Positions 1,347-15,831 of a stretch of DNA of 64,000 nucleotides are shown here, in pieces. The notes under the pieces were generated by a model that was given only the letters and a program-made list of their open reading frames with translations, was not told where the DNA came from and did no database searches. Each line of letters begins with the position of its first letter. Within the stretch, counting starts at the first letter, position 1. Location of the stretch: NCBI RefSeq assembly GCF_001677475.2, contig NZ_CP015229.1; one strand, given 5' to 3'. The translations under genes and the position numbers were made by a program. Origin of the DNA: Escherichia coli. GTDB taxonomy: Bacteria; Pseudomonadota; Gammaproteobacteria; Enterobacterales; Enterobacteriaceae.

Positions 1347-2600
1347 GTGAGCCGTACTACAACTGTTGATGGCGCTCCGGCAAGCGACACTGACAAGCAA
1401 AGCATTTCTCAGCCAAATCAATTTATTAAACGCGGTACGCCGCAATTTATGCGCGTCACCCTGGCGCTGTTCTCTGCCGGACTGGCAACCTTTGCACTTC
1501 TCTATTGTGTGCAGCCTATCCTTCCGGTGCTTTCGCAGGAGTTTGGCTTAACGCCCGCGAACAGTAGTATTTCACTGTCCATTTCCACGGCGATGTTGGC
1601 TATCGGTTTGCTGTTTACTGGCCCGCTATCCGATGCCATTGGGCGCAAACCAGTGATGGTAACGGCGCTACTGTTGGCCTCCATTTGTACGTTACTTTCG
1701 ACAATGATGACCAGCTGGCACGGCATTTTGATTATGCGCGCCTTGATTGGGCTTTCGTTAAGTGGCGTGGCTGCTGTTGGCATGACTTATCTTAGCGAGG
1801 AAATCCACCCCAGTTTCGTGGCCTTTTCGATGGGGTTGTATATCAGCGGCAACTCAATTGGCGGCATGAGCGGACGCTTAATTAGTGGTGTCTTCACGGA
1901 CTTTTTCAACTGGCGAATTGCTCTGGCGGCAATCGGTTGTTTCGCGCTAGCCTCGGCGTTGATGTTCTGGAAAATCCTCCCGGAATCACGCCATTTTCGC
2001 CCGACTTCGCTGAGACCTAAGACGTTGTTTATCAACTTTCGTCTGCACTGGCGTGACCGGGGATTACCGTTATTGTTCGCAGAAGGCTTTTTGCTGATGG
2101 GGTCGTTCGTCACGCTGTTTAATTACATCGGCTATCGGTTGATGCTCTCCCCCTGGCATGTCAGTCAGGCCGTGGTTGGCTTATTATCGCTGGCCTATTT
2201 GACCGGTACATGGAGCTCACCCAAAGCCGGAACCATGACCACCCGCTATGGGCGCGGTCCAGTGATGTTGTTTTCGACGGGGGTTATGCTGTTTGGTTTA
2301 CTGATGACCTTATTTAGCTCGCTGTGGCTGATCTTTGCCGGAATGTTACTCTTCTCAGCCGGGTTCTTCGCAGCCCACTCAGTAGCCAGCAGCTGGATCG
2401 GCCCCCGCGCAAAACGCGCTAAAGGCCAGGCCTCCTCGCTGTATCTGTTCAGTTACTATCTGGGGTCGAGTATTGCCGGGACGCTGGGTGGTGTTTTCTG
2501 GCATAACTATGGCTGGAACGGCGTCGGCGCATTTATTGCTCTGATGCTGGTCATTGCTCTGCTGGTCGGGACGCGTTTGCATCGTCGTCTGCACGCCTGA
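1347..2600 (+). CDS. ynfM: MFS-family inner membrane transporter
   Basis: ORF track 417 aa, GTG start, multiple hydrophobic TM segments. Confidence 0.9.
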   Translation: MSRTTTVDGAPASDTDKQSISQPNQFIKRGTPQFMRVTLALFSAGLATFALLYCVQPILPVLSQEFGLTPANSSISLSISTAMLAIGLLFTGPLSDAIGRKPVMVTALLLASICTLLSTMMTSWHGILIMRALIGLSLSGVAAVGMTYLSEEIHPSFVAFSMGLYISGNSIGGMSGRLISGVFTDFFNWRIALAAIGCFALASALMFWKILPESRHFRPTSLRPKTLFINFRLHWRDRGLPLLFAEGFLLMGSFVTLFNYIGYRLMLSPWHVSQAVVGLLSLAYLTGTWSSPKAGTMTTRYGRGPVMLFSTGVMLFGLLMTLFSSLWLIFAGMLLFSAGFFAAHSVASSWIGPRAKRAKGQASSLYLFSYYLGSSIAGTLGGVFWHNYGWNGVGAFIALMLVIALLVGTRLHRRLHA

Positions 2601-2603
2601 AAA

Positions 2604-2641
2604 ATAAGTCCGGACTGCGGTAAATACCCATCCGGACTTAT
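2604..2641 (+). terminator. Perfect 11-bp inverted repeat (ATAAGTCCGGA / TCCGGACTTAT) just after ynfM stop; weak T-tract
   Basis: Read directly from sequence; only two T after stem so rho-independent function is uncertain. Confidence 0.35.
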
Positions 2642-2906
2642 TGCCTGCTCAAACCAACGTTAATAGCCATCCTAAAATAGACGAAGCGCCAGCCAATTCC
2701 CGCAGCGCATCTAGCGTCATCAGGATTATAAGTACCCAAATAAACGGATTCATTTTGCTGTGTGTCATTTATTACTGATGCGCAGTTATTCTACCGCTTT
2801 GTAAGTAGTAAAATAGTTAACCCGATCAAGACTACTATTATTGGTAGCTAAATTTCCCTTAAGTCACAATGCGTTATTATCAATGCTGTAATTTATTCAG
2901 CATTTG

Positions 2907-2920
2907 TACATATCGTTACA
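2907..2920 (+). promoter_or_regulatory. RstA box (TACATATCGTTACA, fits TACATNTNGTTACA) in asr promoter
   Basis: Exact match to the published RstA-box consensus ~100 bp upstream of asr start; asr is a known RstA/PhoB-dependent acid-induced gene. Confidence 0.6.
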
Positions 2921-3023
2921 CGCTGAAACCAACCACTCACGGAAGTCTGCCATTCCCAAAGATATAGTTATTTCAACGGCCCCGCAGTGGGGTTAAATGA
3001 AAAAACAAATTGAGGGTATGACA

Positions 3024-3332
3024 ATGAAAAAAGTATTAGCTCTGGTTGTTGCCGCTGCTATGGGTCTGTCTTCTGCCGCCTTTGCTGCAGAGACTGCGAC
3101 CACTCCTGCTCCGACTGCGACGACCACCAAAGCAGCGCCTGCGAAAACCACACATCATAAAAAACAGCATAAAGCAGCACCTGCCCAGAAAGCGCAGGCG
3201 GCTAAAAAGCATCATAAAAATGCGAAAGCTGAACAGAAAGCCCCTGAACAAAAAGCGCAGGCAGCGAAGAAACACGCCAGGAAACACAGCCATCAGCAAC
3301 CGACAAAACCTGCTGCACAACCCGCAGCGTAA
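3024..3332 (+). CDS. asr: Acid shock protein Asr (periplasmic, low-complexity Ala/Lys/His/Gln-rich)
   Basis: ORF track 2997..3332; likely true start is internal ATG giving [21 protein letters not shown] signal peptide, 102 aa. Confidence 0.85.
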
Positions 3333-3424
3333 GTTTTCAACAGTAATGCTGGCGCGCCCCCTCGCGCCTGAAAATTACGGTGCTAAGCGGGTAACGTTTA
3401 GCACCGCCTTTAGCGGAGGGTAGT

Positions 3425-3508
3425 ATGGTGGGCCGTTATCGCTTTGAGTTCATTCTTATCATCCTTATTTTATGCGCACTGATTGCCGCCCGTTTTTATC
3501 TTTCCTGA
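3425..3508 (+). CDS. ydgU: 27-aa small hydrophobic membrane protein (MVGRYRFEFILIILILCALIAARFYLS)
   Basis: Own translation; GGAGGG Shine-Dalgarno 5-10 nt upstream of ATG; matches known E. coli small protein YdgU; below ORF-track length cut-off. Confidence 0.7.
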   Translation: MVGRYRFEFILIILILCALIAARFYLS

Positions 3509-3607
3509 TCGTAGTTATCTGATTTTACTCCCACTTTCATCCCGTCCCGTCTATAGTATTTATGAGGGTTTGCTTTTAATAATCATAATTACCCACCAGA
3601 GTGTGAT

Positions 3608-4429
3608 ATGCGTACAACCATTGCTGTAGTGTTGGGTGCAATTAGTTTGACGTCTGCTTTTGTGTTTGCAGATAAACCAGACGTTGCCAAATCGGCAAAC
3701 GATGAGGTCAGCACCCTGTTTTTTGGTCATGATGATCGTGTGCCAGTGAATGACACGACCCAATCACCGTGGGATGCGGTTGGGCAACTGGAAACGGCCA
3801 GCGGCAATTTATGTACGGCGACGCTGATTGCACCCAATCTGGCATTAACAGCAGGACACTGTTTATTGACGCCGCCTAAGGGTAAAGCCGATAAAGCGGT
3901 GGCGCTGCGTTTTGTGTCAAATAAAGGTCTTTGGCGCTATGAGATCCACGACATAGAAGGCCGCGTTGATCCGACACTGGGAAAGCGGTTAAAAGCAGAT
4001 GGGGATGGTTGGATTGTTCCTCCCGCAGCTGCGCCGTGGGACTTCGGTTTGATTGTGCTACGTAATCCCCCTTCTGGCATTACACCGTTGCCGTTATTTG
4101 AGGGAGATAAAGCCGCGCTTACCGCCGCATTAAAATCGGCTGGTCGTAAAGTCACTCAGGCGGGATACCCAGAAGATCATCTCGATACGTTGTACAGTCA
4201 TCAAAACTGTGAAGTGACTGGCTGGGCGCAAACGTCGGTAATGTCACATCAGTGCGATACCTTGCCGGGTGACAGCGGTTCGCCTCTGATGTTGCATACC
4301 GATAACGGCTGGCAATTAATTGGGGTACAAAGTTCGGCTCCTGCTGCGAAAGATCGCTGGCGCGCCGATAATCGGGCCATTTCTGTTACCGGTTTTCGTG
4401 ACAAGCTGGATCAACTGTCACAAAAATAA
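3608..4429 (+). CDS. ydgD: Secreted trypsin-like serine peptidase (S1 family; TAGHC His motif, GDSGSP Ser motif)
   Basis: ORF track 273 aa with signal peptide and catalytic-triad motifs. Confidence 0.85.
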
Positions 4430-5149: not shown

Positions 5150-5560
5150 TATCCTTCTCCTGCAAGAGAATTATTTTAATTTTCGCTTAATTCAGCGAAA
5201 CCAAAGTAAAGTGGTCAAGCCCCGCGCATAGGGCAAGCTTAGGCAGAAGAAAGGACTAAAGCGCGTTGCGCCAGTGCTGCTCACCTACGAGCAAGATAGT
5301 GGATGAGGTACGAAGATGGGTAAATGTAGAAAATAACGTCCTGAACAAATTGTCCATAATATTACAATTATCCGCAGTGTTGCTTCTCGTCATCGCGGAT
5401 GATAATTGTCCTCGGTAGTTGAACACGCCTTTTTTGTATCATAGCTTAAGAATTAACTCAAAATATTTTCATTTCTTTACCTGAGCGGTTTGATTTTCGT
5501 TATGATGACGGAGCGAAAAAGACATTATTATTAGCAAAGGAAGAAAAAACGGGGACAAGC

Positions 5561-13678: not shown

Positions 13679-13806
13679 CTTTTTACCTTAACACTTCCAT
13701 AACAAGTCATCAGTAGAATACCTGATGAAACCTTGTTTAGAAACGATTGATAGTAAGTAAAAACAGCGGGGTGTATTGTGACGTTTTTATATCTACCGTG
13801 AATGTT

Positions 13807-14526
13807 ATGAACACTATCGTATTTGTGGAAGATGATGCGGAAGTCGGTTCACTGATTGCTGCGTACCTGGCAAAACATGATATGCAGGTTACCGTGGAAC
13901 CGCGCGGCGACCGGGCCGAAGAAACTATTTTGCGAGAAAATCCGGATTTGGTGTTACTCGACATCATGCTACCAGGCAAGGACGGCATGACCATTTGTCG
14001 TGATTTACGCGCAAAGTGGTCCGGACCGATTGTTCTTCTAACCTCTCTCGATAGCGATATGAACCACATCCTGGCACTGGAAATGGGTGCCTGCGACTAT
14101 ATTCTCAAAACGACGCCCCCTGCTGTTTTGCTAGCGCGTTTACGTTTGCATTTGCGTCAGAATGAGCAAGCCACACTGACCAAAGGTCTACAGGAAACGT
14201 CTCTGACTCCCTACAAAGCCCTGCATTTCGGCACATTGACCATCGATCCCATCAACCGCGTAGTCACCCTGGCTAACACTGAAATCTCGCTCTCGACAGC
14301 TGATTTCGAATTATTGTGGGAATTAGCTACCCATGCCGGGCAAATCATGGACCGCGATGCATTGCTGAAAAATTTACGCGGCGTCAGTTATGACGGACTG
14401 GATCGTAGCGTGGACGTGGCTATTTCGCGGTTAAGAAAAAAACTGCTCGATAACGCCGCAGAACCTTATCGCATTAAAACTGTGCGTAACAAAGGCTATC
14501 TATTTGCGCCTCATGCATGGGAATAA
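13807..14526 (+). CDS. rstA: Two-component response regulator RstA (OmpR family)
   Basis: ORF track 13747..14526; likely start at MNTIVFVEDD (239 aa); receiver and winged-helix domains. Confidence 0.9.
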   Translation: MNTIVFVEDDAEVGSLIAAYLAKHDMQVTVEPRGDRAEETILRENPDLVLLDIMLPGKDGMTICRDLRAKWSGPIVLLTSLDSDMNHILALEMGACDYILKTTPPAVLLARLRLHLRQNEQATLTKGLQETSLTPYKALHFGTLTIDPINRVVTLANTEISLSTADFELLWELATHAGQIMDRDALLKNLRGVSYDGLDRSVDVAISRLRKKLLDNAAEPYRIKTVRNKGYLFAPHAWE

Positions 14527-14529
14527 GCG

Positions 14530-15831
14530 ATGAAAAAATTGTTTATCCAGTTTTACCTGTTATTGTTTGTCTGCTTCCTTGTGATGTCTCTGCTGGTTGG
14601 GCTGGTGTACAAATTTACCGCCGAACGCGCGGGCAAACAGTCGCTGGATGATTTGATGAACAGTTCGCTGTATCTGATGCGCAGCGAATTGCGTGAGATC
14701 CCCCCACACGACTGGGGTAAGACGCTGAAAGAGATGGATTTAAATCTCTCTTTCGATCTGCGTGTCGAGCCACTGAGTAAATACCATCTTGATGATATTT
14801 CCATGCACCGACTGCGTGGCGGCGAAATTGTCGCCCTGGACGATCAGTACACGTTTTTGCAACGTATCCCGCGCAGCCACTACGTGCTGGCAGTTGGTCC
14901 TGTTCCTTATCTTTATTATCTCCATCAGATGCGATTGCTGGATATCGCCCTGATCGCTTTTATTGCTATTTCCCTCGCCTTTCCGGTGTTTATCTGGATG
15001 CGTCCGCACTGGCAGGATATGTTAAAACTGGAAGCAGCGGCGCAACGATTTGGCGATGGGCATCTCAATGAACGTATCCACTTTGATGAGGGTTCGAGCT
15101 TTGAACGACTTGGTATCGCATTTAACCAGATGGCCGACAATATCAACGCCTTGATTGCCAGCAAAAAACAGCTTATTGACGGTATCGCTCACGAACTGCG
15201 AACACCGTTAGTGCGCCTGCGTTATCGACTGGAGATGAGCGATAACCTGAGCGCCGCCGAATCCCAGGCGTTGAATCGCGATATCAGTCAACTTGAAGCT
15301 TTAATTGAAGAGCTGCTGACTTATGCCCGACTCGATCGCCCACAAAACGAGCTTCATCTTAGCGAACCAGACCTGCCGTTGTGGCTGTCAACGCATCTGG
15401 CAGACATTCAGGCAGTAACACCCGATAAAACGGTACGGATTAAAACGCTCGCGCAAGGCCATTATGCGGCGTTGGATATGCGCTTAATGGAGCGCGTGCT
15501 GGATAATTTGCTCAATAACGCCCTGCGCTACTGTCATTCAACGGTTGAAACCAGCCTGCTACTGTCGGGGAATAGAGCGACATTAATTGTTGAGGATGAT
15601 GGCCCAGGGATTGCCCCAGAAAACCGCGAACATATCTTTGAACCTTTTGTTCGCCTCGATCCCAGCCGGGATCGCTCAACCGGCGGCTGCGGGCTGGGGT
15701 TGGCAATTGTCCACTCTATAGCACTAGCAATGGGCGGTACGGTTAATTGTGACACCAGCGAACTGGGTGGTGCCCGCTTCTCGTTTAGCTGGCCGTTATG
15801 GCATAACATCCCGCAATTTACCTCTGCTTGA
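14530..15831 (+). CDS. rstB: Sensor histidine kinase RstB
   Basis: ORF track 433 aa; H-box IAHELRTPL, HATPase motifs. Confidence 0.9.
   Translation: MKKLFIQFYLLLFVCFLVMSLLVGLVYKFTAERAGKQSLDDLMNSSLYLMRSELREIPPHDWGKTLKEMDLNLSFDLRVEPLSKYHLDDISMHRLRGGEIVALDDQYTFLQRIPRSHYVLAVGPVPYLYYLHQMRLLDIALIAFIAISLAFPVFIWMRPHWQDMLKLEAAAQRFGDGHLNERIHFDEGSSFERLGIAFNQMADNINALIASKKQLIDGIAHELRTPLVRLRYRLEMSDNLSAAESQALNRDISQLEALIEELLTYARLDRPQNELHLSEPDLPLWLSTHLADIQAVTPDKTVRIKTLAQGHYAALDMRLMERVLDNLLNNALRYCHSTVETSLLLSGNRATLIVEDDGPGIAPENREHIFEPFVRLDPSRDRSTGGCGLGLAIVHSIALAMGGTVNCDTSELGGARFSFSWPLWHNIPQFTSA

Follow-up and report, generated by a model that had tools for sequence, protein, structure and literature searches.

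The open reading frame at positions 3425–3508 (plus strand) of the window, by which the whole 64 kb stretch of E. coli DNA analysed here is meant, is very probably ydgU (b4601), a gene renamed samT in 2026, whose 27-residue product, MVGRYRFEFILIILILCALIAARFYLS, is a single-pass inner-membrane protein acting in RstB–RstA feedback. The assignment draws on the sequence itself, on HMM matches, on conservation in relatives and on the literature; every testable defining feature of the YdgU/SamT family is present in the frame and nothing argues against this identity. The present analysis established the identity of the frame, its conservation, its synteny with asr and the conservation of an RstA box and of a hairpin in the surrounding DNA. 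The finding of the 27-codon frame is correct, already known and ordinary, and it carries no weight as a discovery: public annotation already covers the gene, evidence of its translation is on record and a paper of 2026 has described its function. Its value is that of a positive control, in that a genuine 27-codon gene was picked from raw sequence by the strength of its ribosome-binding site, its hydrophobicity and its context. The only new element is a conserved terminator-like hairpin adjoining the samT ribosome-binding site, which is put forward as a modest hypothesis drawn from the sequence.

Features and identity of the reading frame

As read from the window, the frame starts with ATG, runs for 27 codons and ends with TGA (84 nt in all). 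Both the frame and the peptide given for it in a preliminary description were borne out, the peptide to the letter. The strong GGAGGG Shine–Dalgarno sequence which that description had placed before the ATG lies at 3415–3420 (plus strand), at a distance of 4 nt from the start codon; the stop codon of the upstream gene asr ends at 3332, leaving an asr–ydgU spacer of 92 nt. A frame of this kind could in principle be open by chance in the 3′ untranslated region of asr or the 5′ untranslated region of ydgD and yield no functional protein. Short frames are plentiful (64 of at least 20 amino acids in the 3.5 kb around ydgU) and a short frame is uninformative by itself. The pairing of such a frame with a ribosome-binding site goes beyond chance: GGAGG is found 5–15 nt upstream of just one of the 528 ATG-initiated frames of 20–50 codons on both strands of the 64 kb window, and that one is ydgU, which speaks against a chance origin.

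The peptide is strongly hydrophobic, with a GRAVY value of 1.60 and a best 15-residue Kyte–Doolittle window of 3.06. The earlier prediction of a single transmembrane helix is supported, since a GFP–YdgU fusion was found at the membrane (PMC11429745). The layout is that of YdgU/SamT, namely a basic N-terminus (RYRFE) followed by one hydrophobic helix with Cys17. The window peptide is identical to RefSeq entry WP_000233090.1 (`small membrane protein YdgU') and is matched over residues 1–27 of 27 by two NCBIfam models, NF052476 (small_YdgU; 70.3 bits, cut-off 24) and NF011341 (PRK14758; 74.5 bits, cut-off 66); Pfam has no model for it. The name ydgU in the preliminary description was therefore right, resting as it does on the identity to WP_000233090.1 and the score of NF052476. 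The gene order ynfM, asr, ydgU, ydgD, mdtI–mdtJ agrees with that of K-12.

RefSeq carries a ydgU CDS at this locus, which older PGAP runs label `hypothetical protein', and the gene is therefore not absent from public annotation; that the frame was missed by the ORF track is true of the first stage's own track only. A reading of the region as a non-coding RNA was dropped after Rfam covariance models had given no match at E ≤ 1 in 2600–3800.

Conservation in relatives

Relatives were sought in metagenome contigs with a relaxed back-translated DNA pattern of ydgU, which matched the window only at ydgU itself and returned at least 120 loci. After exclusion of 14 of the 120 listed matches as unrelated AT-rich or low-complexity sequence, a YdgU-like frame was present in 106 listed loci, with 61 distinct DNA sequences and 41 distinct peptides. 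The peptide types among them include MLR-RYRFEL…, MVR-RYRFEI… and one with a GTG start. Counts of coding signatures were restricted to features that are not forced by the search pattern.

In 101 of the 106 listed loci an ATG stands where E. coli has its start codon, and the stop codon follows after 27 codons in 81 of them and after 26 codons in 25. Met1 and Cys17 are invariant among the listed relatives. All 53 unique relatives among the matches listed have the RYRFE motif and Cys17 in common; of the two, RYRFE served for selecting the family and is partly forced by the pattern, whereas Cys17 is not. At pattern-free sites of the listed relatives the first, second and third codon positions have entropies of 0.79, 0.24 and 1.17, respectively, and over the ten fully unconstrained ydgU codons pN/pS amounts to 0.35. 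All 53 unique sequences with an ATG start among the matches listed are free of stops in frame +1, whereas each of the other five frames contains stops in 33–53 of them. Conservation of the reading frame, one of the checks proposed with the preliminary description, was thus confirmed among the matches listed.

A few of the listed loci depart from the usual start. Two of them (L026 and L068, of the lineage KVS-RYRFEL…) are without the ATG and have a seeming GTG start one codon later behind GGGAGGG. In L027 the ATG is replaced by TAG, which is probably a sequencing error because the coverage of the contig is 0.78×, and in L064, whose spacer contains a small duplication, ATA stands at the start position.

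Each of the 101 listed loci that have 500 nt or more of flanking sequence carries an Asr homologue immediately upstream in the same orientation. These upstream homologues are mostly 40–70% identical, and the listed loci therefore stem from well diverged lineages. On the 3′ side of ydgU a YdgD homologue is found in 45 of the 65 listed loci with enough flanking sequence.

Variation within E. coli

Of 5426 complete E. coli genomes, 5422 contain the ydgU frame and 3585 have it with the identical 84 nt. YdgU of K-12 MG1655 (b4601, YP_001165320.1) agrees with the window peptide in 26 of 27 residues; codon 21 (window position 3485) specifies Ala (GCC) here and Thr (ACC) in K-12 MG1655, and the DNA also shows one synonymous change (CTT/CTG). 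Thr21 of K-12 is the minority variant, since the DNA of the Ala allele occurs in 3585 of the 5422 E. coli genomes; among the matches listed from metagenomes, 52 of the 53 unique relatives have Ala as residue 21. The asr–ydgU spacer, its hairpins and the ribosome-binding site are identical in sequence to K-12, in which the asr stop and the ydgU ATG are likewise separated by a 92 nt spacer (93 nt when counted from the final base of the stop codon). The functional work on SamT was all carried out on the T21 allele of K-12, and we infer that the A21 allele of the window acts in the same way.

The 801 nt asr region of the window reaches at most 99.0% identity to any of the 5426 complete E. coli genomes. 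The eight differences from the best match (at 2902, 2959–2960, 3077, 3104, 3224, 3280 and 3303) all sit in the promoter or the coding sequence of asr, the spacer and ydgU being identical, and include K→R and A→T exchanges in Asr as well as an AA/GG replacement shortly before the likely −10 element. These differences would suggest either that the window carries an unusual asr allele or that it comes from a lineage absent from the genome collection. In one genome record (NZ_CP067250.1) the ydgU match is split in two places, with 67% coverage and no annotated feature, which may be a disruption of the gene. One E. coli copy of the ydgU region is located on a plasmid record.

The asr promoter and neighbouring genes

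The first gene of the asr–ydgU (asr–samT) operon is asr (3024–3332, plus strand), which encodes the acid-shock periplasmic protein and was identified by NCBIfam NF033636 (99.2 bits), Pfam PF06392 and the RefSeq annotation. Its promoter contains an RstA box, TACATATCGTTACA, at 2907–2920 (plus strand), 117 nt before the start codon of asr; this is the sole match in the window to the RstA-box consensus TACATNTNGTTACA (PMC4117788). Among the matches listed, 73 of the 75 unique upstream regions have a TACA-N6-TACA box at a distance of 116–120 nt from asr (the mean for shuffled sequences is 0.4). No promoter-like site was detected when 2600–3900 was scanned with the σ70 consensus, which is unsurprising because the promoter depends on an activator. 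TATAGT at 2963–2968 is a plausible −10 element of the asr promoter. A transcript running from about 2976 to about 3413 would be ∼440 nt long, which agrees with the acid shock RNA of roughly 450 nt reportedly observed by Suziedeliene et al. in 1999.

The genes of the regulatory system are also contained in the window. The response regulator RstA, which activates the asr promoter, is encoded at 13807–14526 (plus strand; NCBIfam NF007977, 484.6 bits); the match begins at residue 21 of a longer open reading frame (13747–14526), and the position of rstA agrees with K-12. The gene for the sensor kinase RstB, the published partner of SamT, follows at 14530–15831 (plus strand; NCBIfam NF007898, 832.8 bits), 11 kb downstream of samT.

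Two further small frames were noted in the vicinity. Between ynfM and asr, the minus strand (2649–2768) encodes a hydrophobic peptide of 39 amino acids, MTHSKMNPFIWVLIILMTLDALRELAGASSILGWLLTLV, which matches NCBIfam NF033695 (`KPN_01571 family protein') with 63 bits (cut-off 35) and is annotated by RefSeq; this frame would likewise be missed by a length-filtered ORF track. Upstream of mdtJ, a frame of 56 amino acids at 5256–5426 (minus strand), named `protein YdgV' in some RefSeq genomes, overlaps in frame with the 33-residue MdtU (b4777) annotated in K-12, a small open reading frame reported to control mdtJI expression (PMC10746267).

Expression and function in K-12

Work by others on K-12 has demonstrated translation of the gene, its induction by acid and low Mg2+, its dependence on the asr promoter, the membrane location of the product, a two-hybrid interaction with RstB and complementation by samT. 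At pH 4.4 the rise in ribosome footprints on ydgU is the third-highest recorded, with a log2FC of 9.22 (∼600-fold; RNA 12.39), ydgU is placed in the asr transcriptional unit and Asr takes up ∼2% of the ribosome footprints (PMC10746267). Low Mg2+ induces ydgU in a PhoQ-dependent manner; expression is driven by the region upstream of asr, promoter activity just upstream of ydgU being negligible, and according to the authors YdgU expression had earlier been validated by genomic epitope tagging (PMC11429745). Northern blots, published in the paper in which ydgU was renamed samT (NAR, 2026), showed that the acid induction of both asr and samT needs RstA (PMC13425233). Ribosome profiling, epitope tagging and northern blotting under acid shock had been named in the preliminary description as ways of checking the frame, and each has given a positive result. 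Co-transcription with asr, which it had considered possible, is supported by the expression from the asr promoter (PMC11429745) and by the RstA-dependent northern blots (PMC13425233).

Expressed from a heterologous locus, samT by itself suffices to restore the negative feedback at pH 5 as read from a Pasr reporter (PMC13425233). Given this complementation in trans, the ribosome footprints (PMC10746267), the epitope tagging (PMC11429745) and, among the listed relatives, the retention of frame, start, stop and Cys17 together with third-position bias and the low pN/pS, it is scarcely conceivable that the frame is open merely by chance.

The identity of the target was considered separately. SamT might be a real protein whose main target is not RstB but PhoQ, EnvZ or an acid-stress membrane process, the effect on RstB then being an artefact of overexpression. 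The interaction with RstB was indeed detected in an overexpression two-hybrid system which also gave signals with PhoQ and EnvZ; these were weaker, RstB giving the strongest signal, which counts against another main target (PMC13425233). The PhoQP-dependent induction of ydgU in low Mg2+ and the finding that neither deletion nor overexpression of ydgU causes a growth phenotype in low Mg2+ (PMC11429745) would fit a target other than RstB. Against this, the Pasr feedback is lost in four mutants of the rstA/rstB phosphorylation pathway and persists when rstAB is placed under a PhoP-independent promoter (PMC13425233), and the conserved control of the operon by an RstA box fits a loop dedicated to RstBA. 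A main target other than RstB is thus considered improbable, the genetic evidence pointing to the RstB–RstA phosphorelay.

The asr–samT spacer and the transcript

The preliminary description had placed the frame between two hairpins; both hairpins lie on the 5′ side of ydgU, and the 3′ flank (3500–3607) is unstructured, with no significant fold relative to shuffled sequences (z = +0.9). Hairpin 1 (3351–3368, plus strand; GGCGCG-CCCCCT-CGCGCC) has a GC stem of 6 bp without a U-tract (−11.2 kcal/mol, z = −2.6) and possibly stabilizes the mRNA. Its equivalent in the listed loci is a GC hairpin in some lineages, though not in those with a short spacer.

Hairpin 2 (3378–3406, plus strand) has a stem of 12 bp with arms at 3378–3389 and 3395–3406 (−21.1 kcal/mol, z = −4.4). 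Together with a degenerate U-tract, CCTTTAG (3407–3413), it makes up a terminator-like element (3378–3413, plus strand) whose tail meets the ydgU ribosome-binding site: the latter begins 2 nt past the U-tract, and the end of the hairpin is about 19 nt from the samT ATG. Measured against a definition of terminators by at least five U in 8 nt, the stem is strong and the tail has three T; owing to this weak U-tract, hairpin 2 was not called in two terminator scans of the window.

All 50 unique spacers among the matches listed have an equivalent GC-rich hairpin that ends about 18–21 nt ahead of the ATG, with a median energy of −17 kcal/mol versus −8 kcal/mol for shuffled spacers. The sequence of the stem is wholly lineage-specific (CGGCGCTG…, ACACCCGG… and, in Escherichia, CGGTGCTAAGCG…). 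Compensatory changes occur within the Escherichia-type group, for example C–G to T–A in L039. In an alignment of 28 spacers the basal helix of 8 bp is paired in 85.5% of cells versus 28–64% in slid controls, double changes are seen in six of its eight pairs and the GGAG of the Shine–Dalgarno sequence is invariant. Most lineages among the listed loci have the hairpin followed by T5–T8 and then the Shine–Dalgarno sequence (…GCGCCGTTTTTTTCTGGAGAG…), which is how a canonical intrinsic terminator is arranged; decay of the U-tract to CCTTTAG or CTTTTAG is seen in the Escherichia lineage.

No terminator-like site was found between ydgU and ydgD (3491–3640), nor is there a conserved terminator 3′ of ydgU in the listed loci, in which a weak candidate occurs in only nine of 71 unique 200 nt downstream segments. 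The conserved hairpin on the 5′ side of samT and the lack of a terminator on its 3′ side together suggest a leaky terminator. It is a serious possibility, advanced here tentatively, that the hairpin is a conserved and deliberately leaky intrinsic terminator by which the proportion of Asr to SamT is fixed or, under some condition, modulated, and that read-through increased in Escherichia as the U-tract weakened there. The hairpin would then presumably halt most asr transcripts and samT would be made by read-through, which would explain how one promoter can give both abundant Asr and a regulator in small dose. In the paper on SamT, the main text makes no mention of terminators, hairpins or read-through, and the authors explicitly left open the differential expression of asr versus samT (PMC13425233). 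The arrangement of a hairpin before samT and no terminator after it offers a testable handle on the Asr:SamT ratio.

The same arrangement bears on whether ydgD shares the acid-induced asr–samT transcript. This gene (3608–4429, plus strand; Pfam Trypsin, RefSeq) encodes a trypsin-like serine peptidase and follows ydgU on the same strand after a gap of 99 nt. As there is no terminator between the two genes, ydgD is possibly reached by acid-induced read-through from asr–samT, and if the leaky-terminator reading is true ydgD would join the RstA regulon by way of read-through transcripts. Data on ydgD expression were not found in the acid Ribo-seq paper (PMC10746267).

It might further be supposed that ydgU is mainly a cis-acting leader or upstream open reading frame controlling ydgD, in which case the peptide would matter little. 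Such a role would accord with the proximity of ydgD, next on the same strand in the majority of the listed loci with enough flank, with the lack of a terminator between the two genes in the window and in 62 of 71 unique relatives among the matches listed, and with the position of the sole conserved terminator-like element 5′ of ydgU, which groups ydgU with ydgD by transcript. It is at odds with the purifying selection on the peptide (invariant Cys17 and RYRFE, pN/pS of 0.35 at free codons), with the absence of an adjacent ydgD from 20 of the 65 listed loci and with the restoration of RstB–RstA feedback by samT from a heterologous locus (PMC13425233); the 99 nt gap and the ribosome-binding region of ydgD itself also oppose translational coupling. 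A leader function of this kind is thus very improbable, while co-transcription of samT with ydgD is plausible.

Proposed mechanism

Acid pH, or low Mg2+ via PhoQP, would raise the activity of RstB–RstA, upon which phosphorylated RstA would bind the box at 2907–2920 and the asr promoter would fire. Most transcripts probably end at the hairpin (3378–3413), and a fraction would read through and contain the samT ribosome-binding site. Translated SamT would insert into the inner membrane as a single helix, with Arg4 and Arg6 of its N-terminus probably on the cytoplasmic side, and would bind the kinase RstB; less phosphotransfer to RstA would result and the negative feedback would be closed. The sequence prerequisite of RstA-dependent acid expression, an RstA box, is present in the window, the expression data being those of K-12; rstB, through which the damping would operate, is also present, the binding having been reported for the K-12 T21 allele.

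Comparison with known regulators

One functional parallel is the pair MgrB–PhoQ. Like SamT, MgrB is a small inner-membrane protein that is made under the control of a two-component system, binds the sensor kinase of that system and inhibits it in a negative feedback (PMC13425233). SamT and MgrB gave no BLASTP alignment at E ≤ 100, and no MgrB model was among the NCBIfam or Pfam matches of the ydgU product. Homology was ruled out on these grounds: in the absence of detectable sequence similarity SamT is not a member of the MgrB family, and MgrB is a functional analogue only. The two proteins also differ in build, MgrB having 47 residues and a periplasmic tail that contains Cys, whereas SamT comprises little beyond its helix. 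Their genetic setting differs as well, as mgrB is a separate gene (PMC11429745) and samT is the distal gene of asr–samT behind a terminator-like hairpin.

A second parallel is provided by UgtS and UgtL, the PhoQ modulators of Salmonella, which resemble asr–samT in that a positive and a negative modulator are encoded in one operon (PMC13425233). At pH 7 Asr exerts a positive feedback of its own, and neither Asr nor SamT depends on the other for its action, whereas UgtS works by antagonizing UgtL (PMC13425233).
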